Below are positions 2,184 through 50,040 of a DNA stretch of 64,000 nt, one piece after another. Under the pieces are notes generated by a model, which was not told the DNA's origin, did no database searches, and saw only the letters and a program-made list of their open reading frames with translations. The position numbers and the translations under genes are program-made. The DNA is taken from the IMG/VR virus record IMGVR_UViG_3300028392_002123. One strand, 5' to 3'. Origin of the DNA: a virus (Duplodnaviria > Caudoviricetes). Numbering within the stretch: position 1 is the first letter of the stretch; the number at the start of each line of letters is the position of its first letter.

Positions 2184-4353
2184 CGTTATAAGTTATTTTA
2201 ATGTTAACCCCCGACAGATTTTCAAAGACAATTTTCTTACTCAATGGCTTTTTAATTTTTTCTGCAATAATACGCTTCATAGGTCTTGCACCCATTTTTT
2301 CATCAAAGCCGTCTTCGATAAGTTTCAGTATTGCACCATCATCTAGTTCCAATGAAATATTCTTGGGTTCTAACAATTCGTTAATTTCGTTGATAAATTT
2401 AATTACAATCGGACGAATCATCGGTTTATCAAGTTTATTAAATTCGATGATAGAATCTAATCGATTTCTAAATTCCGGAGTAAAGTGTTTATTAACTGCT
2501 TCGATGCTGGCATTGCTGTTAGTACTGTTATCAAAGCCAATTTTATTTCTTTCACCTTCTCTTGCGCCCAAGTTAGAAGTTAGGATTAAAATAATGTTTC
2601 TGCAACTAACAGTTTTTCCACTGCTACTGGTCAGCATACCATTGTCCATAATGCCCAATAAGATATTAAGCACATCAGGGTGAGCTTTTTCAACCTCGTC
2701 TAAGAGCAATACAGCATTGGGTGTTTGTTCTAAGTCATTGATTAATTTGCCTGCGCCGCTGCCGCCTTCACCGTAGCCCACATAGCCAGGAGGTGCACCA
2801 ATCAAGCTGGCAACTTTATGACTTTCTATGTATTCACTCATGTCATAGCGTAATAGTTCCATGCCCAATACATTGGCCAGTTGTTGCGCTAGTTCAGTTT
2901 TACCAACACCTGTTGGACCAACAAACAAATAACTTCCCAAGGGTTTGGTTAGCTCCTTTAAACCTGCTTTACTGATATAAACAGCATCTAATAGTTTTTC
3001 CACGGCCTTGTCCTGCCCGAAAACTTTGGTCTTAATGTCGTGTTCATAGTTCACCGGCTTGTATTCGTTGAGCACTTCCATTTGTTCGATGGGTACCCTG
3101 GCTTGTTCGCTTACTTCTTTCTTGACCTGGTCAACAGTTAGGAATTTATCTAAGGCATCTATTTTTATCTTGGCCATGGCACTATCTAAAACATCCAGTG
3201 CTTTATCGGGCAAATATTTGTCGTGCATGTGTTTAACAGTTAAATCCACACAGGCATCGATGGCCAGGGTATCTACTTCAACTCCATGATAAAATTCATA
3301 TTGATGAATACTGCAATGTAGCATATTTTTACAGTCTTCAGGACTCATTTCATCTATGTCTAATTTAGTAAAACGACGAGCCAACGCACGATCCGGTTCA
3401 ATTGATTCCCTGTATTCTTCATAGGTAGTACTGCCAATGATTTGAATTTTTCCCTTGGTTAATGCTGGTTTGATCAAGTTTGCCATGTCTGTACTGCTTG
3501 ATCCTGCGGCACCTGCGCCAACAATGGTGTGTATTTCGTCAATGAATAAAATGACATTGTCTCTATTTTCTAGTATATCAAATACTTGTTTGACACGTTC
3601 TTCAAAATCTCCTCGATACTTAGTACCGGCCATTAATGCGCCCATGTCTAGATTATAGATAATATGTTCTTTAATTGTACCAGGAACATCATCTTCAACG
3701 ATACGTCTAGCCAAGCCTTCAACAATGGCAGTTTTACCTACCCCTGGATCTCCTACTAGGATTGCATTTTTCTTTTTACGTCTAGCTAGAATTTGTACAA
3801 GTTTTTCAACTTCCTCACTGCGGCCGATCAGCATGTCTATTTCTCCTGCTTCGGCATCTTTGTTTAAATTGATACAATATTCTTCTAGAACTTTTTCTTC
3901 TAATTTAGATTTTTTAGTTTCCACACGTTCCATTTTACCAATACTTTCCAGGAAAGTGTCTTTGGTAACGCCGTGTTCGTGCAGATAAAAATATGCATGA
4001 CTATGTTTTTCACTGAGAATACTTAACAGCATATCAGGCGGACTAATAGAAGCTCTTCCATTAAAAATAGCCTGGGTAAACGCACGATTGAATGAGCGTT
4101 CTAACGTCTGTGTTTTTCTGGGTTTAGTCAGTCCTGGGACAACTAGATCCTCAATGCCTTCTAAGAAATTTGTCAAGTCTTCTACTATTGGTTCTGGGGC
4201 AACGCTCATGACTGACAATGACTCTTGGATATCTTTGTGTTCTAATAGAACCAAAGTTAAATGTTCCAAAGTAACATATTCGTGTTCTTTGTTTAATGCC
4301 AAGCGAAATGCTTTTTCGACAATTTCGTTAATTTGTTGTTTATCTTCTTCCAT
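2161..4353 (-). CDS. clpA: ATP-dependent Clp protease ATPase subunit ClpA
   Basis: Clp N-domain; two AAA modules with Walker A GDPGVGKT and GPTGVGKT, Walker B LFIDEIH and LLLDEVEKAHPDV; FTPEFRNRLD and MGARPM motifs; no ClpB middle domain. Confidence 0.93.
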   Translation of the reverse strand: MEEDKQQINEIVEKAFRLALNKEHEYVTLEHLTLVLLEHKDIQESLSVMSVAPEPIVEDLTNFLEGIEDLVVPGLTKPRKTQTLERSFNRAFTQAIFNGRASISPPDMLLSILSEKHSHAYFYLHEHGVTKDTFLESIGKMERVETKKSKLEEKVLEEYCINLNKDAEAGEIDMLIGRSEEVEKLVQILARRKKKNAILVGDPGVGKTAIVEGLARRIVEDDVPGTIKEHIIYNLDMGALMAGTKYRGDFEERVKQVFDILENRDNVILFIDEIHTIVGAGAAGSSSTDMANLIKPALTKGKIQIIGSTTYEEYRESIEPDRALARRFTKLDIDEMSPEDCKNMLHCSIHQYEFYHGVEVDTLAIDACVDLTVKHMHDKYLPDKALDVLDSAMAKIKIDALDKFLTVDQVKKEVSEQARVPIEQMEVLNEYKPVNYEHDIKTKVFGQDKAVEKLLDAVYISKAGLKELTKPLGSYLFVGPTGVGKTELAQQLANVLGMELLRYDMSEYIESHKVASLIGAPPGYVGYGEGGSGAGKLINDLEQTPNAVLLLDEVEKAHPDVLNILLGIMDNGMLTSSSGKTVSCRNIILILTSNLGAREGERNKIGFDNSTNSNASIEAVNKHFTPEFRNRLDSIIEFNKLDKPMIRPIVIKFINEINELLEPKNISLELDDGAILKLIEDGFDEKMGARPMKRIIAEKIKKPLSKKIVFENLSGVNIKITYNGEDYEFQ

Positions 4354-19902: not shown

Positions 19903-20222
19903 TATTTAAAAATAATCAAAGCCATCAAACAGGCCTGGATAAAAAATCCAAATCCAATGGTAACAATGTTTAAGATATCTTTTTGAATTGTTGATTTAAC
20001 AAAAAATAAAAACAATCCCGACCATGCCAGTAATACTAAATCCACAGGCGGCGTCTTTTCAGTTAGTCCTGTTAAGATTGCCATCAAGGTAGGTATAGTA
20101 GCAAGGTGTAATAAGATTACTGCAATCCATCCTGTGGTCTCTGCACTAATTTTAGTAAAATGTTCTGTGAATGTTGTTTGAATAGAATTCAAAATTTCAT
20201 TGAGATCAAATTTAAATTTCAT
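19902..20222 (-). CDS. Hypothetical membrane protein
   Basis: Three hydrophobic segments. Confidence 0.6.
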   Translation of the reverse strand: MKFKFDLNEILNSIQTTFTEHFTKISAETTGWIAVILLHLATIPTLMAILTGLTEKTPPVDLVLLAWSGLFLFFVKSTIQKDILNIVTIGFGFFIQACLMALIIFK

Positions 20223-20827
20223 TTTTGCTTTCCTTTATTAGGTTTCGTTTCTGTTGCTACAACTACTACCTGTTTAGTATAGTTGCTGGGATTATCACTG
20301 TAAAAAATATGAGCACCTACTTTGGCCACACGTTCTTTGTTCCATTGAGGATTTACATATTCAGCATGATAATACATGGCATTTTGCAAACTAGGTAATC
20401 TAAATCCTTCTAGTAAAACCTTTTTTGCCGCTTCCATACTTTGATCATATGCTTCTTTATTTTTTGGTTTTATCCCGGCCTTGCCTTCGCAATACCAACT
20501 AAATTGACAAAGGACTTTGTCGTAGACTATGTTTTTTTGATAAACCACTTTGCAAATGTCACCGGGAAACTTGCCACTCTCGGCTCGATTCAGCGTTACT
20601 TGTGCAACAGCGGCCTTACCTTCAAAAGGCTCATAACCAGCTTCGTGGTATATGTTTTGTGCCAAACAGTCTAATTGCTTTTCTCTCACTCCAGCAGTTA
20701 TACTAGTTGGCCTCATTTTTTCAGCAGTACGTAAATTGTTCATCTTATACTCATAGGTAAAATTGATGATCCAACATACTAGGATCAATCCTAGCAATCC
20801 TGCTATTAGTTTCATGATGCGTATCAT
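20219..20827 (-). CDS. Cell-wall hydrolase, SleB/Hydrolase_2 family
   Basis: CLAQNIYHEAG.E...GKAAVAQVTLNR, IC.VVYQ, CQFSW, YYHA.YV.P.W, GAHIFY; N-terminal anchor. Confidence 0.88.
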   Translation of the reverse strand: MIRIMKLIAGLLGLILVCWIINFTYEYKMNNLRTAEKMRPTSITAGVREKQLDCLAQNIYHEAGYEPFEGKAAVAQVTLNRAESGKFPGDICKVVYQKNIVYDKVLCQFSWYCEGKAGIKPKNKEAYDQSMEAAKKVLLEGFRLPSLQNAMYYHAEYVNPQWNKERVAKVGAHIFYSDNPSNYTKQVVVVATETKPNKGKQK

Positions 20828-20936: not shown

Positions 20937-22988
20937 TTACTTGCTAGTAGCACGGTAAACTCCGTCCCAATCTTTTGGTAAATCAACTGACTTCATTTCT
21001 TTGCAACGCTCTATCCAATTTTCATAATAATGGTTCATTTGTCCGTCAAATTCTTCCATTAGGTTGTTGCAAAGTTCGATAGCCGCATCGAATCGTTGTG
21101 TTCGATACTCAGACAACATTGCATTGTGAGTTTCTCTGGCTATTAGATAACCTGGCATCGCGCCGGCATCTGTTATCAACACGGTGTGTATATTAACTCC
21201 TTCTTTCTTGCCTTTAACGGCAATACAATCTAATTCTAAAGTAAAGAATTCATCCTTTACATATTCAGCAGTTTTCGTACCAAGTACGATTCGTACACCG
21301 TACGGTTTACTCTGGCCCTCCAGTCTGGAAGCCAAATTAACACCGTCACCGAGGCAAGTATAGTCAAAACGCTGATCACTTCCCATATTACCCACCACAA
21401 CAGTATCACTATTAATTCCAAGACCCATACCAAAAGCTGGTATGCCTTCTGCTGTAACTTCTCGATTAAATTCATCCAAACTCTCCAACATCTGCAGGCC
21501 TGTGCGTACTGCATCTTTAGCATGGTTGCCATTGTCTAATGGTGCATTCCAAAATGCCATTTGTGCATCGCCTATATATTTGTCTAATGTACCTTTATTT
21601 TCTAAAATCTTTTTTGTCATAGCAGTCATATAACGATTCATAATTTTAGTAAGTCCTTGTACATCCTTGCCATAGTGTTCACTAATTGTGGTAAAGCCAC
21701 GAACATCAGTGAACATAATACTTAGCTCTCTACTCTCGCCGCCCAGCTTTAATAACTCAGGCTGACGTTGTAGTTGTGCTACAAGATCTGGACTTAGGTA
21801 AGTTCCAAACTGTTTTTTAATCTGTTGTTTTTGTAAAAACTCACTTACAAACTTGACCCCGTAAGCATGTAAAGCAACCAAAATAATGCCGCTGACCAAC
21901 AAAGTGGAATCAAGAAGATAAAGATAATTTGAATAAGCAAACTTACTGCCGACAATAGAAAGAGCAACAATAGCAACAGTACTAGCAAGTCCAAGATAAG
22001 TCCACCTTGTTAAAAATAATAAAATAATACCCGCTATTAATATAGCAATTATTTCTGCGCCATCTGCCCAGTCGGGTCTTTGTATTATAACACCGTTGGC
22101 CAAAGTTGCTATAACCGCGGCCTGCACATGATGCGGAAATACCGCACCTATGCTCGTTGGCAAAGGATTACTAATGCCTGCGGCTGTTGGTCCTACTACA
22201 ACAATGGCACCACCAAAGTCTTTGGGCAAATCAGTCAATGACACAGATTTACTTTGCTGACTCCAATCAATCCATACGCGGCCTAAATTGTCTGTGGCTA
22301 TAGGACCAAACTTTGGAATACGCATTTTTTCAACACCACCTTCAAATAGCTTGACTTGAAAAGTAGAATCCCCAGCGGCAACACGCAACGTCTCTAGGCT
22401 TAATCCTGGGTATAACTTTTCGTTGACAGCAACCACCAGGGGTACACGACGATTAACACCATCTACTTCCGGTAATGTGTTTACTATGCCCACACCTGCG
22501 GCATTATTTTCTAATTGCGGTATGTTGGCAATCAATCCAGGATATGTGACTATTTGATCCAACCATTCGGGATTTAATACAGCACTACCTGGCACACGTG
22601 GATTATTTTTATTTTTAGAATTAGGTATACTGACTAAGACAACAGGATAGTTTTTAAGTATGGCGCCAAGATCCCTATCTCCACCAGTACGATCAGGCTC
22701 AGCCATAAGCACATTGAGAACAACAAGGCCAGCGTTGCGATGATACAGGTCTTCAATAATTTCAGCATAGTTAACCCTCGGTAACGGCCATTGGCCTAAT
22801 TTATCCAGTGCCGCTTCATCTATATTCACTGTATAGATATTGTTTTCTGTTTGTGTTTTTCCAGCGATCAATGTATCGAAATAACGCAGTCTTACACTTT
22901 CAACAAATGTAGGATCTGCGATTCTTATACCTAACACCAGCACAAGGGTTATTAGTGCTGTCCACGGACTTAGCAATATTTTTTTCAT
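20937..22988 (-). CDS. CHASE2-domain class III adenylate cyclase
   Basis: N-terminal TM, CHASE2-like region (VNIDEAALDKLGQWPLPR), three TMs, cyclase motifs FTDVRGFT, LDKYIGDA, GINSD.VVVGNMGS..RFDYT.LGDGVNLASRLEG. Confidence 0.93.
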   Translation of the reverse strand: MKKILLSPWTALITLVLVLGIRIADPTFVESVRLRYFDTLIAGKTQTENNIYTVNIDEAALDKLGQWPLPRVNYAEIIEDLYHRNAGLVVLNVLMAEPDRTGGDRDLGAILKNYPVVLVSIPNSKNKNNPRVPGSAVLNPEWLDQIVTYPGLIANIPQLENNAAGVGIVNTLPEVDGVNRRVPLVVAVNEKLYPGLSLETLRVAAGDSTFQVKLFEGGVEKMRIPKFGPIATDNLGRVWIDWSQQSKSVSLTDLPKDFGGAIVVVGPTAAGISNPLPTSIGAVFPHHVQAAVIATLANGVIIQRPDWADGAEIIAILIAGIILLFLTRWTYLGLASTVAIVALSIVGSKFAYSNYLYLLDSTLLVSGIILVALHAYGVKFVSEFLQKQQIKKQFGTYLSPDLVAQLQRQPELLKLGGESRELSIMFTDVRGFTTISEHYGKDVQGLTKIMNRYMTAMTKKILENKGTLDKYIGDAQMAFWNAPLDNGNHAKDAVRTGLQMLESLDEFNREVTAEGIPAFGMGLGINSDTVVVGNMGSDQRFDYTCLGDGVNLASRLEGQSKPYGVRIVLGTKTAEYVKDEFFTLELDCIAVKGKKEGVNIHTVLITDAGAMPGYLIARETHNAMLSEYRTQRFDAAIELCNNLMEEFDGQMNHYYENWIERCKEMKSVDLPKDWDGVYRATSK

Positions 22989-23533
22989 AGGCTAAAAGGT
23001 AACCAAATTCCTTGACCTAACAAAAGAATACCCACAACAGCAACATATAAACTTACCTTATACATCTTATTGTTAACTGCAAGAATACTGGCAGATAATA
23101 AAACGATTGCTAGTTGGAATGCCATGCTGGCAAATGTTAACCATGGGCTGTGTTTACTAGCTTCATCTCTGGCCTTTTCATAGCCCTGGGCCTTGGCCAA
23201 TAATTCTTTTTTACCTTCACCTTTTTCAGGATCAGTTTCATAGCGATCAATTTTTGCCTGTAGTTTTTCAGCCTTGACTCGTTCACCGCGAGTTATATAG
23301 TCATCACGCTGACCCTCGGCAATGGCCTGTTTGATAGATTTGGATTGAAAAAATGCGTATGTGTCTGTGGCTTTTAGTGTATTCTTTAATACAGCACCAC
23401 TGAAACTATTAGCAAAGTAAGTAGTAATAGCCATGAACAACGCCATAATAACAATGACTAATCCGGCTTTATCTTTAATTAATGCTTCGCGTTCGCTACG
23501 AGACAACGGTTTATCTAATTTTACTTCTGACAT
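22985..23533 (-). CDS. DUF4337-like membrane protein
   Basis: N- and C-terminal TM segments, ATDTYAFFQSKSIKQ motif. Confidence 0.65.
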   Translation of the reverse strand: MSEVKLDKPLSRSEREALIKDKAGLVIVIMALFMAITTYFANSFSGAVLKNTLKATDTYAFFQSKSIKQAIAEGQRDDYITRGERVKAEKLQAKIDRYETDPEKGEGKKELLAKAQGYEKARDEASKHSPWLTFASMAFQLAIVLLSASILAVNNKMYKVSLYVAVVGILLLGQGIWLPFSL

Positions 23534-23535
23534 GA

Positions 23536-23652
23536 TTAATCCTTTTTAAATGCGGCCAATACTTTTGCCTGAATGTTTTTTGCAAACTGTGGCTGAGGAA
23601 AATTCCAACCTATAAAAGCACCCAGTGCTAACCAAAATAATGTTTCTAACAT
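23536..23652 (-). CDS. 38 aa membrane peptide
   Basis: Hand-translated MLETLFWLALGAFIGWNFPQP...; GGAGG SD and upstream TAAATA. Confidence 0.6.
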   Translation of the reverse strand: MLETLFWLALGAFIGWNFPQPQFAKNIQAKVLAAFKKD

Positions 23653-23699
23653 AATTGTACCTCCCTAAAATATAAAATATTTACCAAAAACTTATTTGA

Positions 23700-24002
23700 C
23701 TACAGCTTAACATTGGCTTTTGGCTCTTTTTTCGTAGTTTTACTGTTATTCCCTGCACCTAGTACGCAGGCCGCAGATTCATTGAACTGAATCAGAGTCC
23801 AAGACTTGGTCTCTTCATTGACCAATAGTGCATATTTACTAACGGTGTCCTGTCCGGTCCAAATTGGAAATTCTCCGTATGTTGTAGTAAGAGGTCCAAT
23901 AATATTGGTAGGCGTATCACATATCAATTCTTTATCTACTGTTACGGGGTTTGGGTAAGCCAAAACAGGTAATAGTAGAACACAAGCTAATAATTGTTTC
24001 AT
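23700..24002 (-). CDS. Small secreted protein with two mature-region Cys
   Basis: Signal peptide; AGGAG SD and TAAATA upstream. Confidence 0.6.
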   Translation of the reverse strand: MKQLLACVLLLPVLAYPNPVTVDKELICDTPTNIIGPLTTTYGEFPIWTGQDTVSKYALLVNEETKSWTLIQFNESAACVLGAGNNSKTTKKEPKANVKL

Positions 24003-24024
24003 TGTGTTCTCCTTAGAAAAGTAT

Positions 24025-25161
24025 TTATTGCCCTTGATTCACAGTAATCTTAGCACATCCGCCGGCCGAAGCACAGTTACTGGTAATCGAATAAAATTGT
24101 TGTGTATTACCGCTTTGGGTTAAACTCAAGTCTTGTGCTAGCCCTGACAGACTAACCTTGGCCATATGACCAGCACTTCCCTGTTGAGTAATGTCAACAT
24201 TTTTATTGCCTCCACTTAGTGTAACTTCGGCATAGTGACTGCCACTATCCTTTTGCTGGATAGCAACTGTGTTGTTACTGTCTTGAATATTAACAAAGGC
24301 ACCTTTACCGCCGCCGGTACTTTGCTGAATAATGTTAACAGTATTATTATTACCCGATATATTTGTTTCTGTATAGTTTATTTGAGTGGATGAATTTCCT
24401 CGTTGGGTAATAGTAGTATTATTAGAAGAGCCGTTGCCGTTGTATTCAACATAATTTTGCTTGGTTCCCGACTGTTCTACTGTAATAGTATTTGCATTGC
24501 CTATTTGATCAATATATACTTTACTATCATTAGTTGTGCGAGAAGAGAATCCTAAAACCTTAGACATATTTGCAGTAGTTGCATTAAACGGTGAAGCACT
24601 ACCTCCGCAACATAAAGGTGGCGGCCCGGCCGGCTGTGCTGTTTGACCAGCGGCCAAGGGAGTGGTACTACCATTGGCGGCATACGCATTGACCTGAGCG
24701 GCTGTTGGATTCAATGTACCAGTCCACGTAACCCCGGCTGATCCAGATAGTCCAGTGGTCATACTGAATAGTTGACCAGTGTTATTATCGTTGCCTACAA
24801 AAAAGAAAAAGTCGTTGCCCATGTTAATAATATGCCCAGTACCCATGTTGTCTATGGCAGTACCGTTACTTCTGTAGTGTACAGCCAGCCAAGGATTGCC
24901 AGCGTCCTTTTGCGAGTTATCAATGAATGCTATGTAGTCGCCTGCGGCCCAAGTTATGCGGCCGCTGGTCCAGGGAATTTTGTATGCTGTGCCTGGATTC
25001 TTACTGTAGATTTGACAAGTGGTAGTGTACATACAAGCACTGACATTCCACTGACTGTCTGCAATTTGTGCTTGGCCAAACTTTAAATCAACAAGCCCTG
25101 TTGCTTGTCCAGTGGAGCATAGTGCAAATAATAAAAAAAATATTGATAAAAATCTTGTCAT
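24025..25161 (-). CDS. Secreted protein with C-terminal curlin-like repeats
   Basis: Signal peptide, about 190 aa non-repetitive domain, then N...I.Q.G..N repeats (NTITVEQSG, NTTITQRG, NTVNIIQQS, NTVAIQQK, NVDITQQG). Confidence 0.7.
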   Translation of the reverse strand: MTRFLSIFFLLFALCSTGQATGLVDLKFGQAQIADSQWNVSACMYTTTCQIYSKNPGTAYKIPWTSGRITWAAGDYIAFIDNSQKDAGNPWLAVHYRSNGTAIDNMGTGHIINMGNDFFFFVGNDNNTGQLFSMTTGLSGSAGVTWTGTLNPTAAQVNAYAANGSTTPLAAGQTAQPAGPPPLCCGGSASPFNATTANMSKVLGFSSRTTNDSKVYIDQIGNANTITVEQSGTKQNYVEYNGNGSSNNTTITQRGNSSTQINYTETNISGNNNTVNIIQQSTGGGKGAFVNIQDSNNTVAIQQKDSGSHYAEVTLSGGNKNVDITQQGSAGHMAKVSLSGLAQDLSLTQSGNTQQFYSITSNCASAGGCAKITVNQGQ

Positions 25162-26258
25162 CTTCTTAATACACCGTTATTTTGTTTTATATAAACACTA
25201 TTCCCACCACCACCTGCTCCAATTAATTCACTGGCACTGGCATCATCATGTACAATAGTTATTGATGTATTAGATTCATAGCCCTGTGTTTTTACTTCGG
25301 CATAATGATCTGTGTTAGAACGAAAGGCGATACCTTTACCTTTTAACTGAATGTCACTGGCATCTGGATTTGTCCAACTTATACAGATGCCAGTACTTGG
25401 ATTACAGCCTGTTTTTCCTGCGGCCTCAAGTAATGCTAAGATTCTAGCACGTTCGATGTCATCTGCAGATTCTTTAACTCTCTGCGCTAGTCGCCTTGCG
25501 GCTTCTGATTCAATTTCTGCATCTAGCTCTTCTTTCTTTGTGCGACCAGTATTATCACGTATAGCACGTTCAACTTCGTGTGGCCTAACAAGAATTAAGT
25601 TATTATTAATTTTACTTTCTAGTGTATTGATAACCACAGGTGCTGTTGGTCTACTGTCAAAGCTGGTAATATAAGTTGCTTCAAATGCTTTGTCTAATGT
25701 AACTACACCTGCGCCATTAGAAACAACGATAGCTCCTACTTTACAAAGATTTTCTTCTAATTCGTATTTCTTTTGCTGGCTTTCGTCTTTACAACTAGGT
25801 AAAAGAACAACTAGGCTCTGTCCCGTTTCGTCCACTGTCATTGAAAAGTCTGTGCCACGAACAGCAATGTTAGCAGTGGGTGTGTTAACTGCAACTTGTT
25901 GCGGATTATTTTTAGCAATTTGTCCACTGGCATAACGTACTGTGCCCATGGTTACTTTCATGGCCAGTTTGCCGGCATCTGATTTTTTAGGATCGTAGAC
26001 AAAGTCGTCAATGACTAATTTAGAGTTTTCGGTTATTTTAACTTTGGTATCGTCTTTGAATGTAATATTACTAGAACAAGCCTGTGTCAAATATGTGTCC
26101 ATACTTTCTATGCTTGCACCTTTAAGTCCTGGAGATTTATTTTTTCCTCTTAGCACTTCACAGGCAGATCCTTTATTGTCTGCTACAACACCAATACTAT
26201 CGCCGGCAATGGCGATAGTATTTTGTAACACTAAAAGAAAGAGAAATAATCGCCACAT
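25158..26258 (-). CDS. FecR-domain periplasmic protein
   Basis: Signal peptide; ITFKDDTKVKITENSKLVIDDFVYDP, GTVRYASG, V.TPTANIAVRGTDFSMTVDE.G.S.V.L motifs. Confidence 0.8.
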   Translation of the reverse strand: MWRLFLFLLVLQNTIAIAGDSIGVVADNKGSACEVLRGKNKSPGLKGASIESMDTYLTQACSSNITFKDDTKVKITENSKLVIDDFVYDPKKSDAGKLAMKVTMGTVRYASGQIAKNNPQQVAVNTPTANIAVRGTDFSMTVDETGQSLVVLLPSCKDESQQKKYELEENLCKVGAIVVSNGAGVVTLDKAFEATYITSFDSRPTAPVVINTLESKINNNLILVRPHEVERAIRDNTGRTKKEELDAEIESEAARRLAQRVKESADDIERARILALLEAAGKTGCNPSTGICISWTNPDASDIQLKGKGIAFRSNTDHYAEVKTQGYESNTSITIVHDDASASELIGAGGGGNSVYIKQNNGVLRR

Positions 26259-26261
26259 GAA

Positions 26262-27068
26262 TTACCTCACAATGGCAGTTGCCGCTCCGACAATAGCAGT
26301 ACTACTTGTTCTAACTGTTATAGTATTATTGCTACCTGTTGTTCGAATATCCACAGTAGTATCATTCATACCCTGTTGTTGAGTTGTAATGCTGTTAAAA
26401 CTACCAGCAATAACTTCCTTTAAATTATGACCATTGGCACCAGCTGAGTCAATCTGTTGAATATTTAATACGTTGCTGTTACCTGTGATACTAATATCAC
26501 TTACACCATTTGAACTTTTCAATTCTTTAGTGATTTGATTTAAATTTCCAGTTATCGATATAGTACTTGTAATATCATTGCCTACTAACTGTTGAAGTAC
26601 TAAATTGGTATCTCCAGTTATTGTTTCTGTCACTGTGTTACGCAAATTACTAGCATTATTAGTGTCTCCAATAGAGAGTCTAGTTAAATTGTTGATCCCA
26701 GTGACAGTACTAGAATATGAATTGTTATTACCTTGGATATTATATTGTGCTCCATTACCATTGCCATGTTGTATCAATGACAGCGTATTAGAACTGCCTG
26801 TAATTGTAGCATAGTTAGTTGAGCTAGGTGCTGCCGGTGCAACAGTTGTAATGCCGCTGGCGGATATCGAATTTGTGGCAGTTGATGCTGTTCCTCCAAC
26901 GTTGTTGGTGCCACCGACTTGTTCAATAGTAACCGTATTACTATTACCGACTTGTTCGATATAAACTTTATTTGGGCCTGTTGCAGATTGTGCAATAGCA
27001 TACGCAGTTGCAGTAGAAAGTGCAAGGCCAACTAAAGTCATTGATAACATCTTTGTCGCTTTTTTCAT
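26262..27068 (-). CDS. Curlin-like major subunit (CsgA/CsgB-like)
   Basis: Signal peptide followed by Asn/Gln/Gly/Ser/Thr-rich repeats (N.VYIEQVGNSNTVTIEQVG, NTLSLIQHGNGN, NVLNIQQI..N). Confidence 0.78.
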   Translation of the reverse strand: MKKATKMLSMTLVGLALSTATAYAIAQSATGPNKVYIEQVGNSNTVTIEQVGGTNNVGGTASTATNSISASGITTVAPAAPSSTNYATITGSSNTLSLIQHGNGNGAQYNIQGNNNSYSSTVTGINNLTRLSIGDTNNASNLRNTVTETITGDTNLVLQQLVGNDITSTISITGNLNQITKELKSSNGVSDISITGNSNVLNIQQIDSAGANGHNLKEVIAGSFNSITTQQQGMNDTTVDIRTTGSNNTITVRTSSTAIVGAATAIVR

Positions 27069-27216
27069 TTTATAACATAGATAGATTATTTTTTCTCTAC
27101 CTAAGCCCCTGGGTTAAACCCTGTTACTTACCCTGTTTATTTTGCCAGGGTGTGTGATTTTCGTACCACACACTACACAAGCAAGATCCATGCAAGAATT
27201 TTTCTTAAATCCATGC

Positions 27217-28329
27217 TTACTTAGAACCATCTTTTAAATACCTTTTTAATTCTGACCCTTTATCTTTTTTGTTGTCAACGGCCGAACTTTCTGTTTTGTT
27301 TCTTCCATCATCTTTTGGCTTGCTGGGCTCGCTCTGTGCGGATGAATCAGTGGGCTCTGCAACGGTGGCGGATGTTTTTGAGGTTTGTGTTTGAACCAAC
27401 TCATTTTTCTTCTCCTTGATTAACGGAACATCTTCTGTGTTAGAAATTGTCACAGGTCTTTCAATATGCTCTGGTAATGGCGGCATTTTTACCGCAGGTT
27501 TTTCTTCCTGGAAAGCCCAGTGGCCTTTTCTCACACCTTCTTGTATGGTATTAATCACCGCGGCTTGAACTGCTACATCAATTGCTTTGTTTATACTTTC
27601 ATTAATGCTACCGCCAATTTCTCCTTCAAGAGCAGTGGCATTTGCACCTAAATCTGTTCCGTCACCTATAAATCTTAATAATGTAATTTTATCCATATAG
27701 CTTAATACAGTTTTAGTTACCGTGGTTGTTGTTAAAATTTCTCCTGTGGCCACACTGACTGTACGCAATGTAACTGTGACAGTATCACTTTGATATTGTG
27801 TGCTGGCTCCTATGCCGAATATACGAACACCTGATCCACCTGTTAATGTATTGCTATCATAGCCAACTATGCCGCCTTCAATGATGATACCTGCAAACAC
27901 CATTGGTGGTAAAGGTTTAGCATCTTTACCTTGATATTGTTCACGGGCTTGTCTAATCATTTGACGCTCTTTGATTAGGTTATCCAAGCCAACACGTTCC
28001 AATACCATGAACCATCTTGCATCACCGGCTTCTTGTAGTGCCCTAATAAGATAACTTTCAGCACCCTGTGTAACTGCTGAACTTAAACTGGCAATGTTAG
28101 GCATTGACTTGCGTTGGCCTGTCTTATCTGTAAATCCATAAACAGCCACAGCGATTGGTCCGCCAGCAGGGGGTGCTAATTTATTCTGTTCCTTTTTCAA
28201 AAACTTACTAGTTTCTATAACGGGTTCATCAAACTGATTACCAGTCATTTTTTCTCTAACTGCGGACCCAGTGGCACACCCGGTTAAAATTGCTACTACG
28301 GCCAAGGATAAAACTGTTCTTTTCATCAT
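27217..28329 (-). CDS. csgG: Curli secretion channel CsgG
   Basis: Lipobox LTGC; VAVYGFTDKTGQRK, SSAVTQGA, WFMVLERVGLDNLIKERQMIR, IIEGGIVGYDSN..TGG.G.R; low-complexity C-terminal tail. Confidence 0.93.
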   Translation of the reverse strand: MMKRTVLSLAVVAILTGCATGSAVREKMTGNQFDEPVIETSKFLKKEQNKLAPPAGGPIAVAVYGFTDKTGQRKSMPNIASLSSAVTQGAESYLIRALQEAGDARWFMVLERVGLDNLIKERQMIRQAREQYQGKDAKPLPPMVFAGIIIEGGIVGYDSNTLTGGSGVRIFGIGASTQYQSDTVTVTLRTVSVATGEILTTTTVTKTVLSYMDKITLLRFIGDGTDLGANATALEGEIGGSINESINKAIDVAVQAAVINTIQEGVRKGHWAFQEEKPAVKMPPLPEHIERPVTISNTEDVPLIKEKKNELVQTQTSKTSATVAEPTDSSAQSEPSKPKDDGRNKTESSAVDNKKDKGSELKRYLKDGSK

Positions 28330-28339
28330 TTATATCTTT

Positions 28340-28831
28340 TCATATCTTAAATGCCGCATATGGCATTGTTAATTCTGTGTAATTGTTTGGATTATTCATA
28401 TCTACTATTCGAACAACAATGTTATTTCCAACAATACTCCAAGTAATGTTTTGTCCACCGATGTCAATATCTCCGCAAGGACCTCCAACACTCAATGGGG
28501 TACAAGTTGGAGCACTAGTAGTTGATCCAAACAAACTGTCACTGATACGTTTTGCTAGTTCACTGTAAATTCTTGTTTCTAAACTAGCTTGAAATCTTGC
28601 CTGTGGGGTGTTTGCGGCATCTCTTTCAGCGGCCGCTTTTAAAGCATCTGCCGCTGCCTTATTTTTTTCTTTTTGCTGATCTTCTAGTTGTTTAATAGTC
28701 AGCACATGACTACTATATCCAACGCCACTAAACGCTGGACTATTAAAACTATGTTGCAATTCAGCTGAATACGCATTTGTTAAAATTGACAAAATACCTA
28801 TTAGAATCATAGACTTTTTCATACGAGACAC
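28340..28831 (-). CDS. csgF: Curli assembly protein CsgF-like
   Basis: Signal peptide then AELQHSFNSPAFSG, resembling the CsgF N-terminal F.NP.FGG segment; directly upstream of csgG. Confidence 0.75.
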   Translation of the reverse strand: MSRMKKSMILIGILSILTNAYSAELQHSFNSPAFSGVGYSSHVLTIKQLEDQQKEKNKAAADALKAAAERDAANTPQARFQASLETRIYSELAKRISDSLFGSTTSAPTCTPLSVGGPCGDIDIGGQNITWSIVGNNIVVRIVDMNNPNNYTELTMPYAAFKI

Positions 28832-28963
28832 TCCTTAATTATATTTACAGTCTTAGTTAGTGGTGTAATACACAAGTTTAATCATTACAACCCTTAGTAT
28901 TAAGTACTCAGTTTATTGATTTCAAAAAACATCTAAATAGCTATAGTTAACTAGGAGACAGCC

Positions 28964-29599
28964 ATGGAATTTCTTTTTGATTTCACAGATGAAAAACTTG
29001 CAAAATGTATAAGCAAGAATAAAGATCCACACAGTTGGTATGAAGCATTGGCAGAACAACTGCCTAAATTTTATATAGTTACACCTGCAAGGGTTGCAGG
29101 TTTTATCAGTCAATGCCAACACGAAAGTGCTGATTTTACTATACTAGAAGAAAATTTAAATTATGGATGGAAAGGCCTACGCGGCCTATTTGGAAAATAT
29201 TTTCCCAATGACGATCTTGCCAAGCAGTACGAGCGCAAGCCACAGTTAATTGCCAACAAAATTTACAGCGGCAGAATGGGCAATGGGCCAGAAGCTACCG
29301 GAGACGGATTTAAATTTAGAGGTCGTGGCATATTACAAATTACAGGCCGCAGTAACTATACACAATGTAGTAGAGACTTATTCGGCGACGATACTCTAGC
29401 TGACAATCCAGATTTGTTAACTGAACCAGAATACGCTATTTTAAGTGCCTGCTGGTTCTGGCACAAAAATAGATTAAACGATATCTGCGACAAAGGCGAT
29501 GTAGTGCTACTCAGCAAACGAATCAATGGTGGTACCATTGGCTTAGAAGATCGTATACATCACTGGAACCAGTGTTTACATTCTTTCGAAAGTCAATGA
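28964..29599 (+). CDS. Glycoside hydrolase family 19 endolysin
   Basis: FISQCQHES, EENLNY, GDGFKFRGRGILQITGRSNY, SACWFW, RINGG..GL.DR. Confidence 0.9.
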   Translation: MEFLFDFTDEKLAKCISKNKDPHSWYEALAEQLPKFYIVTPARVAGFISQCQHESADFTILEENLNYGWKGLRGLFGKYFPNDDLAKQYERKPQLIANKIYSGRMGNGPEATGDGFKFRGRGILQITGRSNYTQCSRDLFGDDTLADNPDLLTEPEYAILSACWFWHKNRLNDICDKGDVVLLSKRINGGTIGLEDRIHHWNQCLHSFESQ

Positions 29600-42603: not shown

Positions 42604-42679
42604 TGGTTGCGGGTGAAGGATTCGAACCTCCGTCCTCCAGGTTATGAGCCTGACAGTCTGACCACTGACGTAACCCGCG
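42604..42679 (-). tRNA. tRNA-fMet (CAU), initiator type
   Basis: 76 nt cloverleaf CGCGGGU...ACCCGCAACCA; C1:A72 mismatch, G11:C24, loop CUCAUAA, encoded CCA. Confidence 0.9.
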
Positions 42680-42688
42680 GTATGCTAT

Positions 42689-43258
42689 TTATAGTAAGCC
42701 TTCTTGCGTTAATATTTGTACAGTACGATCGCTGAGTGCAATCTCTGTGCGTACATTTAACTCAAGCAATTCGTCTTGCAATTTTTGTTTAGATTTTTTT
42801 ACTAAACTGACCAAGATTTTAAAACCTTTGATATCTTCTTCTTGGAAGATACTGGTAGAAACTGTGTTTTCGAAGCCGTAGATACTGCGACTGTCTTCTT
42901 TACGATTTCTAATTTTTGCCAATTTACCTTCGATGTGTGTGGGATCTTCTCGAACTGCCTTGGCCATGAATGCGGTATAACTTTGGATTTGTTTATCCAA
43001 GTGTGCAATGTCTGCCAAGCGCATGTCAACACCCACTTGATTATTGGCCGCACTAGTGGCTTTGCGAATTTCATAGACCGCAGACACCAAAGTGTCTTTA
43101 CGTGCAAGATCTTCTTTGAATTTCATAACTGCTTTGGCTAGTTCTGGTTCAACAGTTTGAAATTCATTGAGACTGACTTCAGTGACCAAATTAATAGACT
43201 TGATCGCGTCATTGATGCTATTTTGCAGTACAGAAGCTTTACGTAAACTAATGTTCAT
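42689..43258 (-). CDS. Hypothetical coiled-coil protein
   Basis: 189 aa; AAGGA SD. Confidence 0.65.
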   Translation of the reverse strand: MNISLRKASVLQNSINDAIKSINLVTEVSLNEFQTVEPELAKAVMKFKEDLARKDTLVSAVYEIRKATSAANNQVGVDMRLADIAHLDKQIQSYTAFMAKAVREDPTHIEGKLAKIRNRKEDSRSIYGFENTVSTSIFQEEDIKGFKILVSLVKKSKQKLQDELLELNVRTEIALSDRTVQILTQEGLL

Positions 43259-43267
43259 TTTTATTCC

Positions 43268-43441
43268 TTACTTTTTGTCTTTGTTATTTCGACCGGTGCG
43301 CTGACGACTTTCAGCTTCTGCAATAGCCACATAGCTACGCATAAAAGCACCACGCTTGTGCGGATCACTGATAGTTGATGCCGCCATTTTTACCAAACTA
43401 CCGATTTTAACGGCCTTGGGATCATATCCTCTACATGTCAT
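43268..43441 (-). CDS. 57 aa hypothetical protein
   Basis: Hand-translated MTCRGYDPKAVKIG...; AAAGGA SD and its own promoter. Confidence 0.6.
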   Translation of the reverse strand: MTCRGYDPKAVKIGSLVKMAASTISDPHKRGAFMRSYVAIAEAESRQRTGRNNKDKK

Positions 43442-43464
43442 TTTATTTCCTTTAAGTTAACAAT

Positions 43465-43493
43465 ATTATACAACAAAATTAAAACAGAGTCAA
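43465..43493 (-). promoter_or_regulatory. sigma70 promoter TTGACT-N17-TATAAT
   Basis: Read directly. Confidence 0.8.
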
Positions 43494-43499
43494 GAAAGC

Positions 43500-43770
43500 A
43501 AGTAACCAACTGGACAAAAAACAGTGAAATTAATTTCTTAATTTCCAACAAGTCACAATGCACAAAGCACAGAGACTTGTATATGTCTGGTTAGCAAATC
43601 ACAAAGTCGATAAAGTTCGGACCAGTTCACACAAGTGCGGGGCGTTTTCAAGGCGCCTGCCATTGGAGTTATGTTCGTAATCGCATGTAGCGATAACGAG
43701 TGTCAGTTCTCATCTCTTTCTTTTCTCCGGGTAGTTCGCTTTCGCTACTACCAAAACTATAAATCTGTGT
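43500..43770 (-). ncRNA. Candidate structured RNA downstream of tRNA-Pro
   Basis: At least five hairpins including a GAAA tetraloop and a final 7-bp stem followed by a U-tract. Confidence 0.4.
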
Positions 43771-43778
43771 TGGTAAAT

Positions 43779-43855
43779 TGGTCGGAGTACAAGGATTCGA
43801 ACCTTGGACCCCCTGGTCCCAAACCAGGTGCGCTACCAGACTGCGCCACACTCCG
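43779..43855 (-). tRNA. tRNA-Pro (UGG)
   Basis: Cloverleaf CGGAGUG..., loop UUUGGGA, TTCGAAT, CCA. Confidence 0.95.
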
Positions 43856-43937
43856 AATAAAATCTTGCCTTATTAGAACGGTTAGGCTACCGGTTAAATT
43901 CTCGACTCTAACTGTGATTCAATCTCGGTGGAAAAAA

Positions 43938-44567
43938 TTATTCTAGTCTGCTAAATCCCCATTGACGTTCTTCACACCACCAACAGTGACCGCAGTGGCC
44001 ACTAGTTAGTATAAGATCTTCGCAGGACCTTGTCAAGGGAAATATATCGTCTAATACATTCAATTCCTTATATATACCCGAAATTACTTTTTTATCAACG
44101 TTGATAAAAGGTCTATAATTCCTATTGTTATTCCCTGTGTAAAATGGTTTAATATCATAGGGATTGCGTTCTGATCGAGTACGACTATTATCTGTAAATT
44201 TATCTGTTACTTCTACCGGAGGATTTGCTGTTACCCCTGTGTACAAATAATTTATTTTTCCCGAGTTAAGATCTGCAATACCATGCGTTAACATATTACT
44301 TTCTGTTTGTTCATCGACAAACACAACATGATGATAGACATTATTTCTATTTAACATATCTATACATTTGCCAATTACTTTTAATGCATAATGCGGTGCT
44401 GTTCTACTTTTTGCTTTATTGGCACATGTATAAACATGCACAGCACCTTTTGCATATTTCATTAAAATATACAGCAATATTGAACTGTCGGCTCCTCCGC
44501 TGACACTAACACCGATCGGTCCATCATGAATGTCAATGTTAACATTATTAATTGTCAACGTCTGCAT
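43938..44567 (-). CDS. QueC-like PP-loop ATPase (7-cyano-7-deazaguanine synthase family)
   Basis: [10 protein letters not shown]-loop and C-terminal TRSC...[10 protein letters not shown] Zn site. Likely start ATG 44567. Confidence 0.7.
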
Positions 44568-44568
44568 G

Positions 44569-44853
44569 TTATTCTGTTTTATTTGATTCTTCAGCGTCCC
44601 GACGGAACTCATCTTCCATCCACAACATTTTTCGATGCTGATACATTTCTTCGCTGAGTCCGTGCCAGCCGATACACTTGCCTGTTGGGCTACGGCCGCA
44701 ACCACACTTGCCAAATTCTTCTGCGTTTTCTTTTACTCTTACCTGCATAGCCTGTTCCTTATTTTTATTAAAAATTCTGTCCCAATTGGATGCATAAGTT
44801 TCTGCACCAATGCTAAATGGACGAGGTGAGCTACCTTTGCCGCCATCACTCAT
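44569..44853 (-). CDS. Small protein with CDGSH-like Cys3His motif
   Basis: [15 protein letters not shown]. Confidence 0.55.
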
Positions 44854-44890
44854 AGTAATTCCTCAAAATTGTATAATTACTTATTCATAG

Positions 44891-44919
44891 ATTATACAAT
44901 AGATCCTGCAGGCAGTCAA
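44891..44919 (-). promoter_or_regulatory. sigma70 promoter TTGACT-N17-TATAAT
   Basis: Read directly. Confidence 0.8.
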
Positions 44920-45056
44920 GCAGTTTTTAACTTTTTTAAATTATCTATTGCCAATTTTACATCATTGACATTGATACATAATCTCTGTGCTATTTCAAAT
45001 GCACTAAGCCTAAGTTCTAAATAGGATCTAATTTCTGCAAGTATAAGACGCGACAT
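44916..45056 (-). CDS. 46 aa protein, HTH-like
   Basis: Hand-translated ...LSAFEIAQRLCINVNDVKLAI...; GGAG SD. Confidence 0.5.
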   Translation of the reverse strand: MSRLILAEIRSYLELRLSAFEIAQRLCINVNDVKLAIDNLKKLKTA

Positions 45057-45128
45057 ACTAATCTCCAGGTATATAATATATAACGCATGAACTTAGTCTG
45101 TCGTTGACAACACACTATAAATATTTTG

Positions 45129-45896
45129 ATGCAAGACTTATTTGATATACTATACACACCCCTGGACTGTCCGCCAATGCCTAAAATAGATGTGGACAAA
45201 CTGGATCTTTGGCAACAAGATCGAGTCAATAATTTTGACAAGAACAAATCAGCAAGCGCGGCCGAACTTCAGTCCAATGCTCGCACTTGGTTTATGAAAA
45301 AATCTTTTTTTCAAGGAGATCAAAATCAATATCCCTGGGATCTATCTATGTTATATTATAATAAAAATAACAGCAACGTGGGATGGTTAGGCGGATTTGA
45401 TAAAGAGTTCCCCGAACTAGTAGAGTATATTAACTCAGCTTTTGGAATACCAGTGCATGAATTTGGCACAGTATTATTACTGCCTGTTAAAAAATCACAT
45501 ACTGGAATATACTGGCATAGAGATGATGATACATCGGGTCTGCGTATGTACATTGAACACGAAGATCCAGTGAACAATACATTAATAATGCGTAGATCTG
45601 TGACCAGAGATAGATGGCCCTTGCCATGGCAGTATGATATTACTAGGCCGTTAAATGGATTTCAAGAAGAAGATTTAACCTGCAACATTGTCAGTAAAAA
45701 TCAATGTTTCTTCCTGAACAATATTAGAGCATTGCATGCCACAGTGACCAAAGCACCTGAGCGCAGAAGATTCACATTGTTGTTTGGCGACAAGTTAAAT
45801 AGAGTCATGCCAAATAGAATTAATCAACTCACCGAAGATTTAATCAAACGTAGTGCTGAAAAATACAAAGAGCAGGCCATACTATGGCCGGTTTAA
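45129..45896 (+). CDS. 2OG-Fe(II) oxygenase-like protein
   Basis: WHRDD...LHATV...RRF; ATG 5 nt after TATAAATA. Confidence 0.55.
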   Translation: MQDLFDILYTPLDCPPMPKIDVDKLDLWQQDRVNNFDKNKSASAAELQSNARTWFMKKSFFQGDQNQYPWDLSMLYYNKNNSNVGWLGGFDKEFPELVEYINSAFGIPVHEFGTVLLLPVKKSHTGIYWHRDDDTSGLRMYIEHEDPVNNTLIMRRSVTRDRWPLPWQYDITRPLNGFQEEDLTCNIVSKNQCFFLNNIRALHATVTKAPERRRFTLLFGDKLNRVMPNRINQLTEDLIKRSAEKYKEQAILWPV

Positions 45897-46090
45897 ACAG
45901 CAGTCAATGCTTGTTTGAGTGCCGCTAACTCTGCGTCAGACATAACTAATTCTAGTTTGTTCTGCTCTGCATCTGGATTACGGGCCCATGCATAAGTTGT
46001 AAAAATTCGAACATGGTTGTCATATGGGGCAACGTTTAATTTACGAACTTCGCAGTACAACTTATAACCTGCTTTGTCACTGATAATCAT
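45893..46090 (-). CDS. Hypothetical protein
   Basis: 65 aa; AGGAG SD. Confidence 0.6.
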   Translation of the reverse strand: MIISDKAGYKLYCEVRKLNVAPYDNHVRIFTTYAWARNPDAEQNKLELVMSDAELAALKQALTAV

Positions 46091-46109
46091 ATCGACTCCT
46101 TTTAAAATA

Positions 46110-46185
46110 TGGCTCCCCGAGCTGGGTTCGAACCAGCGACCAGCGGATTAACAGTCCGTTACTCTACCAACTGAGCTATCAGGGA
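46110..46185 (-). tRNA. tRNA-Asn (GUU)
   Basis: Cloverleaf UCCCUGA..., loop CUGUUAA, CCA. Confidence 0.95.
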
Positions 46186-46191
46186 ATAATT

Positions 46192-46267
46192 TGGTGGAAG
46201 TTGACGGGATCGAACCGCCGACATTCTGCGTGTAAGGCAGACGCTCTACCATCTGAGCTAAACTTCC
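46192..46267 (-). tRNA. tRNA-Val (UAC)
   Basis: Cloverleaf GGAAGUU..., loop CUUACAC, CCA. Confidence 0.95.
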
Positions 46268-46269
46268 TA

Positions 46270-46413
46270 TTATCTTGTAAAATACCTTTTTATCTTGATC
46301 CAGTAGTACCTAACTCCACGTGGAGTTTTGATCCAATCTGCATCAAACCAAAAACCTATTTCTCGGGGCATATTGCCATATGCCTTGTTTAAAGTATCTT
46401 CTTGCTTTGACAT
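46270..46413 (-). CDS. 47 aa basic protein between tRNAs
   Basis: Hand-translated MSKQEDTLNKAYGNMPREIG...; AAGGAG SD. Confidence 0.6.
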   Translation of the reverse strand: MSKQEDTLNKAYGNMPREIGFWFDADWIKTPRGVRYYWIKIKRYFTR

Positions 46414-46432
46414 ATATGCTCCTTATAGTAAA

Positions 46433-46508
46433 TGGTGGAGGTGACAGGGATCGAACCCGCGACCTACTGGTTGCAAACCAGTCGCTCTCCCAATTGAGCT
46501 ACACCCCC
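46433..46508 (-). tRNA. tRNA-Ala (UGC)
   Basis: G3:U70 identity pair, loop UUUGCAA, CCA. Confidence 0.95.
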
Positions 46509-46509
46509 A

Positions 46510-47313
46510 TTAATTTTTAAACTTGGCTAAATTTAACTTAACCAATAATTCTATTGTTCTTGCCGCTGGATCGAGTTCATACCATTTTCTTCCATAGCGA
46601 TAATTCGCAGGATCATCATGATGATTTCGATGCCAAGCATCTCCGTTATTAATATTCAGCATAACCAGTACTAGGCTGTTACTACCTTTATTATTACCTC
46701 CAACAGGTAATAACCATGCAGGAGTGTTATGACCCCATGCGTTAATGCTATGCATCTTGTTGATGGTCAATCCCAACACAGCAATCCAAAATAACAACAA
46801 TTCTGGACTAATAAAATAAAGCGACAATAACCATACTGCATTTATTACCCAACTATATCTTGCAAACCATGCATGAGTAGGGTCCTTGGCTAGATCGGGC
46901 GCATACTGTATTTTAATGGGAGTAAAATACGTACAAAACTGAATCCACAGCCTAGATTTAAAATAAGGACTATGCGGATCACGTTCGGTGTCAGCATGTC
47001 TATGATGTTGTCTATGCACAGCGGCCCAACCTATGCTGGTGCCAACCATGGTAATTGTGAATAAAAATAATCCTAGAATATTCAGATATTTCTTAGGTAC
47101 CCAGGATCTATGCGACCATGCTCTGTGTGCAAAAATAGTAAGATTAATTCCTAGTGCGTATACAGTAATCAACAGTATTGCAATGGAACTAAAATTAAAA
47201 TTATTTGCAATCCAATATACACTGACTATCAAACTAGTGATGCCCACGGTGCTTAACAACCAAGGTTCAATTTTAACTCTGTCTAAGACCATATTATTCT
47301 TTAATGAATACAT
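46510..47313 (-). CDS. Membrane fatty-acid desaturase (delta-9-like), third paralog
   Basis: His boxes HRAWSH, HRQHHRH, HRNHH; DTERDPHSP; WYELDP. Confidence 0.88.
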   Translation of the reverse strand: MYSLKNNMVLDRVKIEPWLLSTVGITSLIVSVYWIANNFNFSSIAILLITVYALGINLTIFAHRAWSHRSWVPKKYLNILGLFLFTITMVGTSIGWAAVHRQHHRHADTERDPHSPYFKSRLWIQFCTYFTPIKIQYAPDLAKDPTHAWFARYSWVINAVWLLSLYFISPELLLFWIAVLGLTINKMHSINAWGHNTPAWLLPVGGNNKGSNSLVLVMLNINNGDAWHRNHHDDPANYRYGRKWYELDPAARTIELLVKLNLAKFKN

Positions 47314-47740: not shown

Positions 47741-47741
47741 A

Positions 47742-48590: not shown

Positions 48591-48599
48591 GTTATCGAT

Positions 48600-48821: not shown

Positions 48822-48897
48822 TGGTGCCCCCACCATGATTCGAACACGGGACCTACTGATTACAAATCAGTTGCTCTACCAGCTGAGCTATAAGGGC
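48822..48897 (-). tRNA. tRNA-Thr (UGU)
   Basis: Cloverleaf GCCCUUA..., loop UUUGUAA, CCA. Confidence 0.95.
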
Positions 48898-48929
48898 AAT
48901 ATTATTACTTATTTTTGCTATTCAAAATT

Positions 48930-49003: not shown

Positions 49004-49014
49004 ACTAAAAGGGA

Positions 49015-50037: not shown

Positions 50038-50040
50038 ATG

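Follow-up and report, generated by a model that had tools for sequence, protein, structure and literature searches.

Curli-type secretion genes linked to a FecR-domain protein and a CHASE2 receptor cyclase in a freshwater phage

A stretch of DNA of 64 000 nucleotides (hereafter the window) from the IMG/VR virus record IMGVR_UViG_3300028392_002123 (Duplodnaviria; Caudoviricetes) was analysed for a cassette that joins curli (type VIII) secretion genes to a FecR-domain protein and to an adenylate cyclase carrying a CHASE2 domain (Table 1). Nine genes lying in the same direction had been proposed in an earlier note on this DNA. All of them were recovered (9/9), on the minus strand and with the proposed identities. 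The core of the cassette consists of csgF, csgG, a curlin subunit gene, the gene of the secreted FecR-domain protein, an adhesin-curlin fusion and the CHASE2 class III adenylate cyclase. The stop codon of the FecR gene overlaps the start of the curlin fusion gene, and abutting or overlapping start-stop pairs are also found in many relatives. The DUF4337 and cyclase genes overlap at their stop and start as well. For csgF, the gene and its location were right but the start probably was not: since an AAGGAG ribosome-binding site precedes the ATG at 28822 and not the GTG at 28831, translation probably begins at the ATG. No T4-type late promoter motif was found anywhere in the cassette, and sigma-70-like sites ahead of csgF gave weak matches only. 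A near-consensus sigma-70-like promoter (TTGACT-17-TATAAT, 20926-20898) lies directly after the cyclase stop codon.

Table 1. Genes and intergenic region of the cassette, with positions in the window.
Feature	Position	Strand	Evidence
csgF-like, secreted CsgF homologue	28340..28831	-	Pfam CsgF PF10614, E 2e-07, 31.7 bits (cut-off 25.8); phrog_35372
csgG, outer-membrane lipoprotein channel	27217..28329	-	Pfam CsgG PF03783, E 2.9e-46
Curlin-repeat subunit with signal peptide, CsgA/B-like	26262..27068	-	Pfam Curlin_rpt, 23.9 bits (cut-off 20.7)
Secreted FecR-domain protein, 366 aa	25158..26258	-	Pfam FecR PF04773, E 5.6e-10
Adhesin-like curlin fusion, 378 aa	24025..25161	-	BLASTP to the curlin gene; AlphaFold2 model
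Small secreted protein, 100 aa, probably accessory	23700..24002	-	Signal peptide
Putative hydrophobic peptide, 38 aa, probably accessory	23536..23652	-	Open reading frame and AGGGAGG ribosome-binding site read from the sequence
DUF4337 membrane protein, probably accessory	22985..23533	-	Pfam DUF4337, E 1.9e-30; predicted transmembrane segments at either end
Receptor adenylate cyclase, CHASE2 and class III domains	20937..22988	-	CHASE2, E 1.4e-39; Guanylate_cyc, E 9.3e-19
Divergent intergenic region between csgF and the GH19 gene	28832..28963	.	Candidate promoter region; weak sigma-70-like matches

The cassette is almost certainly a member of the viral type VIII secretion (curli) module that has already been published. 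Phages HTVC008M and Melnitz carry the same genes in the same order, with protein identities of 32-47% (41% over 99% of the length for the cyclase of Melnitz), so that the precedent for csgF, csgG and curlin genes in Pelagibacter myophages, to which the earlier note had appealed, is real. The curli cluster of pelagiphages was described by Zaragoza-Solas (2020; PMC7029224), and the FecR protein and the adenylate cyclase were reported, with phylogenies, as conserved parts of the viral type VIII secretion system (T8SS) region of podo- and myophages by Wittmers (2022; PMC9599517). The module order given in that study, csgF-csgG-curlin-FecR-(curlin)-adenylate cyclase, is present here. The linkage of FecR and cyclase to curli genes, earlier singled out as the novelty of the locus, is therefore not new: it was published in 2022, and the GenBank record of Melnitz already labels both the FecR domain protein and the cyclase. 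The additions of the present analysis are modest and consist of a subfamily assignment for FecR, parallels in bacteria and lectin fusions of the curlin proteins.

Type VIII secretion is represented by a CsgG-family lipoprotein channel, an adjoining CsgF and secreted curlin-repeat subunits. CsgG was matched to the E. coli CsgG structures with phmmer (E 3e-46), with the lipobox cysteine in register. CsgF gave no sequence match to solved CsgF structures. The residues that form the constriction of E. coli CsgG (Y51, N55 and F56) are replaced in the alignment of the phage proteins; because they are not conserved, the phage pore may work differently. The CsgE gate was found in none of five records (the source record and four relatives that are 92-100% complete), and alphaproteobacterial curli systems likewise have no CsgE (Wittmers 2022; PMC9599517). 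A hidden Markov model (HMM) of the curlin family built from the phage proteins matched the curlin genes beside csgF and csgG in five alphaproteobacterial loci. CsgG also carries a C-terminal tail of ~95 residues (~277-370), rich in Lys, Glu, Ser and Thr and of low complexity, which is absent from E. coli CsgG; among relatives the length of this tail ranges from 0 to ~170 residues.

The curlin fusion has no Pfam match but is 42% identical over 90 aa to the product of the curlin gene (BLASTP E 4e-10). It consists of a signal peptide, an N-terminal domain of ~155 aa, a disordered linker rich in Pro and Cys and a seven-turn beta-solenoid, as modelled with AlphaFold2 (AF2; predicted local distance difference test, pLDDT, 78.7). 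The solenoid model matches CsgA fibrils (8enq, Z 14.6; 8c50, Z 14.0). No matching fold or family was found for the N-terminal head, which is kept in the orthologues. In several orthologues, lectin domains of the F5/8 type C family (discoidin, galactose-binding type) are inserted before Curlin_rpt repeats that score above the cut-off. A lectin head on a curlin anchor favours exported adhesive fibres over an empty pore, and the infected cell would thus make adhesive surface fibres.

The empty pore is the proposal of Buchholz (2022; PMC9004378), in which the phage curli genes have a role in lysis timing: CsgG-CsgF would be repurposed as a gated outer-membrane pore, similar to a pinholin or a secretin, that times lysis, and no fibres would be formed. 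The altered constriction of CsgG is consistent with it, as are the two peptidoglycan hydrolase genes (GH19 and SleB-like Hydrolase_2) that flank the cassette and the lack of clumping in cultures infected by Melnitz (PMC9004378). It accounts poorly for the conservation, together with the pore, of curlin-repeat proteins with signal peptides (17/17 close loci; the fusion in 69/84), for the CsgA-like solenoid of the fusion and for the acquisition of lectin domains by curlin proteins, which makes little sense without export. We consider a fibre-free lysis pore improbable.

The FecR-domain protein was modelled with AF2 (mean pLDDT 81.6) as a beta domain (~19-218), a long helix (227-283) and a small conserved C-terminal beta domain (291-359). 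The N-terminal beta domain is similar to the periplasmic domain of PupR (6ovk, Z 14.9, root mean square deviation 2.5 over 134 residues) and also resembles BDI_1681 (4m0n, Z 13.9). Within it, residues 19-115 are also similar to the domain by which an RTX adhesin is anchored (5ix9, Z 6.6, 73/76 residues). A cleavable signal peptide stands directly before the beta domain, and the protein has neither a cytoplasmic anti-sigma domain nor a membrane anchor. A look-up of the exact protein gave no match; homologues of FecR number more than 6,000. The C-terminal beta domain, with its invariant Q359, was considered as a possible curlin repeat and rejected: none of 32 family members matched Curlin_rpt at E 1, and the hhalign probability was 12.5%.

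An HMM of the N-terminal domain of the phage FecR separated two groups of bacterial proteins. FecR proteins encoded beside alphaproteobacterial CHASE2 cyclases reached 36-91 bits, whereas the 12 best classical FecR proteins from that class did not exceed 4.8 bits (E >= 0.29). On the strength of this split, the phage protein is assigned to a CHASE2-associated FecR subfamily and not to the FecR of iron-responsive anti-sigma systems. The absence of a FecI sigma factor and of a TonB receptor, remarked upon earlier for the window, extends to the whole 141.7 kb source record and to the four near-complete relatives, in which no extracytoplasmic function (ECF) sigma factor or TonB-dependent transducer was found. 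These results bear on the suggestion of Wittmers (2022; PMC9599517) that FecR is a regulator responsive to iron (ferric citrate) which couples curli expression to iron supply. The Pfam family name and the significance that iron limitation has in surface waters (PMC9599517) speak for such a regulator. Against it stand the cleavable signal peptide without a cytoplasmic anti-sigma domain, the missing sigma factor and transducer, and the failure of the phage HMM to recognize classical FecR proteins. This explanation is very improbable and, for the phage FecR, close to refuted.

The cyclase consists of a transmembrane segment, a periplasmic CHASE2 domain, three transmembrane segments, a class III catalytic domain and a conserved C-terminal tail of ~80 aa, which is the architecture of the CHASE2 receptor class III cyclases of the CyaD1/CyaK type. 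The description of the protein as an intact receptor cyclase was borne out: CHASE2 lies between membrane segments and all six canonical catalytic residues are retained (D428 and D474 for the metals, K470 and T544 for adenine, N551 and R555). The enzyme looks active from these residues. No cyclic-nucleotide-binding protein that could serve as a receptor of cyclic AMP (cAMP) was found in the five records. In the family alignment of the phage cyclases, the set T544-C545-N551 alternates with D544-V/I545-S551 as linked residues; Ser takes the place of the transition-state Asn in just those members that have Asp for the substrate Thr.

The conservation of the cassette was determined in 34 CsgG-centred and 80 cyclase-centred viral loci, in which the cassette proteins were located by tblastn; counts of synteny were restricted to loci with at least 8 kb of flanking DNA on both sides. 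CsgF, CsgG and FecR were kept in 42/42 cyclase-centred loci, and FecR and the cyclase, with CsgF and CsgG, in 17/17 CsgG-centred loci. In eight viral loci the cyclase gene is inverted and still lies within 10 kb, with the set intact. The identity of FecR among the syntenic loci falls to 29%. Synteny of csgG, fecR and the CHASE2 cyclase across phages, on which the earlier note had staked its proposal, was thus kept in every locus counted, inversions included.

Between FecR and the cyclase the loci differ. This stretch measures 31 to 6,517 bases among viral loci and holds the curlin fusion in 69/84 loci and the family of the 100-aa protein in 14/84, mostly just upstream of the cyclase; DUF4337 was found near the cyclase in only ~7/114 loci. 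The 100-aa secreted protein belongs to a family found only in phages in ESM Atlas, and the 38-aa peptide has no family match. Because the content of the gap varies in this way, the three genes ahead of the cyclase, previously counted as members of the cassette, appear not to be conserved parts of it and are best regarded, judging from these counts, as accessory inserts that differ between lineages. The gap is an insertion hot spot with assorted envelope-related inserts and other morons, among them small lipoproteins of ~47 aa (13 loci) and a metallophosphoesterase-like gene (~250 aa) that often travels with a ~330-aa gene without a known family. Contigs with the phage order csgF-csgG-FecR-cyclase were also binned into bacterial metagenome-assembled genomes (MAGs) of five phyla, labelled Chitinophagaceae, Bacteroidetes, Luteolibacter, Pirellulales, Rhodobacteraceae, Flavobacteriaceae and Pelagibacter; most likely the contigs are of phage origin and ended up in the bacterial bins by mistake.

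For the bacterial context, 300 alphaproteobacterial genomes were sampled and 36 CHASE2 loci were fetched. A cyclase output domain is present in 35/36 of these loci, and a FecR gene of the phage subfamily lies within ~10 kb in 17/36, many of the products being 940-2,100 aa long. With 427 matches in 301 genomes, the background of FecR is ~1.4 genes per genome. A pair of ABC and HlyD genes occurs in 12/36 loci and one or the other in 23/36; in one locus, FecR and the cyclase are accompanied by a TPR/Slam-like barrel. The constant pair therefore appears, in the sequences sampled, to be FecR and the CHASE2 cyclase, with an export machine that varies (type I, Slam-like or type VIII). When the genome collection was searched with the phage cyclase, most matches were phage-like MAG contigs with the phage gene order, and one usable match was clearly chromosomal (locus L133, on an Inquilinaceae chromosome without CsgG). 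The curli version of the pair was seen, among the loci sampled, only in viral loci and phage-like MAG contigs.

At L133:1423-15204, an Ig/cadherin protein of 2,107 aa that has FecR as its N-terminal domain is encoded with a CHASE2 cyclase, an ABC transporter, HlyD and a divergent EAL protein with a cyclic-nucleotide-binding domain. In L133 and four further loci (L145, L146, L150 and L151), operons join a giant RTX/cadherin/Ig protein headed by FecR, the ABC/HlyD(/TolC) genes of type I secretion and a CHASE2 adenylate cyclase. No paper was found in the literature searched on alphaproteobacterial operons that combine a FecR-headed adhesin, type I secretion and a CHASE2 cyclase. A published FecR-CHASE2 parallel is the LysM-FecR and CHASE2 kinase operon of Burkholderia. 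In the CHASE2-cyclase/Clr system of Sinorhizobium meliloti, the FecR-domain gene smc02177 is in the Clr regulon. The NsrA-CyaK-Clr cascade, in which an outer-membrane protein feeds a CHASE2 cyclase, had been invoked as a precedent for a relay from the outer membrane through CHASE2 to cAMP, and it is indeed a published cascade.

A rival reading separates the cassette into two modules that only happen to travel together. Curli would then provide fibres or a pore, and FecR and the CHASE2 cyclase would sense an unrelated cue from the periplasm or from outside (for instance a nutrient, a second phage or damage to the envelope) and reset host cAMP, with no information passing from fibre to cyclase. 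In keeping with this, the FecR-CHASE2 pair and curli are each found in bacteria without the other, the gap from FecR to the cyclase is a hot spot for the insertion of unrelated genes, and the predicted co-fold of FecR (20-225) with CHASE2 (25-310) scored 0.00, a value that is neutral either way. Against independent modules stand the linkage, unbroken in all viral loci sampled and maintained despite inversions, the position of FecR between two curlin genes with an overlap onto the second, and the physical fusion, in bacteria, of FecR domains of this subfamily to surface proteins that are exported. We regard such independence as rather unlikely.

The best reading of the locus is a fibre-export system in which a periplasmic FecR protein feeds a CHASE2 cyclase, to which we assign a probability of roughly one half. 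The infected cell would build a CsgG-CsgF channel in its outer membrane, through which two curlin-repeat proteins would leave, one plain and one with a non-curlin head (and, in related phages, a lectin domain), and these would form adhesive fibres at the surface. The FecR-domain protein would stay in the periplasm as a partner or ligand of the CHASE2 domain; bacteria, too, have genes of this FecR subfamily next to those of CHASE2 cyclases. The cyclase could then report the state of export or of the fibres as cAMP; as the phage encodes no cAMP receptor, the signal would be read by the host's own receptors. The contact between FecR and CHASE2, the direction of the signal, the formation of fibres and the effect downstream are inferred, whereas the identities of the genes, the intact catalytic residues, the conserved linkage and the relationship of FecR to its subfamily are shown. 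A relay from the surface to cAMP is plausible. More tentatively, the cassette could represent, for type VIII secretion, a device of general use, in which the long-sought protein input of the orphan CHASE2 domain is a protein of the FecR fold, linked to a surface fibre or adhesin and to the outer-membrane exporter; the phage would read fibre export or cell contact as cAMP and set lysis timing, aggregation or phage exclusion accordingly. In this general form the idea is possible but doubtful.

Several observations weigh against fibre export read by the cyclase. The constriction of CsgG departs from that of E. coli, CsgE was missing from all five records, and no clumping was seen in Melnitz-infected cultures (Buchholz 2022; PMC9004378). 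The co-fold of FecR with CHASE2, neutral as it is, is counted here too. The viral loci were picked by their similarity to the window and are relatives, so that the synteny counts do not represent independent events. Finally, 5/5 alphaproteobacterial curli loci sampled had no FecR or CHASE2 cyclase within ~9 kb, and the link to curli itself is consequently without a cellular parallel in the sample.

The source record is a 141.7 kb IMG/VR virus with a completeness of 41% according to CheckV. The neighbouring genes are of phage type and include a clamp loader, a collagen-like tail fibre, a Lon-like protease and nine tRNAs. The Lon-like ATP-dependent protease is full-length (2161-4353, minus strand; phrog_4871, E 7e-239) and the nine tRNA genes are dispersed among small open reading frames (42604-51552). 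A peptidoglycan hydrolase gene lies on each side of the cassette: a GH19 chitinase/lysozyme-like gene (28964-29599, plus strand) and a SleB-type Hydrolase_2 gene (20219-20827, minus strand), the latter with an N-terminal membrane segment in its product; homologues of both recur close to the cassette in other loci. A megablast search of the cassette against deposited phage records gave no significant match, and relatives were reached by protein-level searches only. Those that bear the cassette measure 328-344 kb, with terminal repeats in two. The DNA of the window recurs in freshwater metagenomes from four studies and was present in no RNA run. Given the freshwater recurrence and the size of the cassette-bearing relatives, the source is a freshwater jumbo T4-like phage with complete relatives of ~330-345 kb. 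Freshwater SAR11 myophages have been reported without the curli operon (Zaragoza-Solas 2020; PMC7029224).

These phages and their marine cousins are abundant, and the cassette occupies 5-8 kb of the genome. Neither HTVC008M nor Melnitz infects a host with curli genes of its own, so that in these two cases infection would equip the cell with a surface structure and a source of cAMP that are new to it. With FecR recognized as of the CHASE2-partner type and not as an iron regulator, the vague label of 'regulatory genes' is replaced by a concrete and testable two-protein sensor, and the subfamily links the phage module to bacterial blocks that combine adhesins and cAMP. The window itself holds another copy of a described module, new for a freshwater jumbo phage.

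The closest known system is the viral T8SS of pelagiphages (HTVC008M, pelagimyophage MAGs, Melnitz and HTVC023P-type podophages), which, like the cassette here, comprises csgF, csgG, curlin, FecR, a second curlin and the cyclase and has no CsgE, CsgC or CsgD. Those pelagiphages are marine, whereas the present cassette is of freshwater origin, lies in a jumbo-phage lineage of ~340 kb, has three extra genes ahead of the cyclase and encodes a CsgG with a long C-terminal tail. In the podophage versions the module is preceded by a 'histidine kinase', which is absent here (no HATPase_c domain in the source record); a divergent GH19 gene stands upstream of csgF instead. The minimal curli loci of alphaproteobacteria (csgF-csgG-curlin) resemble the phage cassette in having CsgF, CsgG and curlin-repeat proteins without CsgE, CsgC or CsgD, and are matched by the phage-derived CsgG HMM at E 1e-87 to 1e-95.

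The FecA-FecR-FecI and PupB-PupR-PupI signalling systems share with the phage FecR the fold of the periplasmic beta domain (6ovk, as above). They have an anti-sigma domain, a membrane anchor, an ECF sigma factor and a TonB-dependent transducer, whereas the phage has none of the four and its FecR belongs to another sequence subfamily. In the NsrA-CyaK/CyaD1/CyaD2-Clr system of S. meliloti, CHASE2 receptor cyclases are fed via an outer-membrane protein and the FecR-domain gene smc02177 is a Clr target, within the same cAMP regulon. The outer-membrane component there, NsrA, is a beta-barrel with a plant protein as its cue, not a curli channel, and the output regulator has been identified as Clr, whereas the phage encodes no receiver. 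The alphaproteobacterial blocks of FecR heads and CHASE2 cyclases resemble the phage cassette in that a FecR of the phage subfamily, a CHASE2 class III cyclase and a machine for export across the outer membrane are encoded side by side. Export in these blocks is of type I or Slam-like and not of type VIII, and the FecR domain usually forms the N-terminal part of the protein that is exported, whereas the phage FecR is a separate protein of 366 aa.

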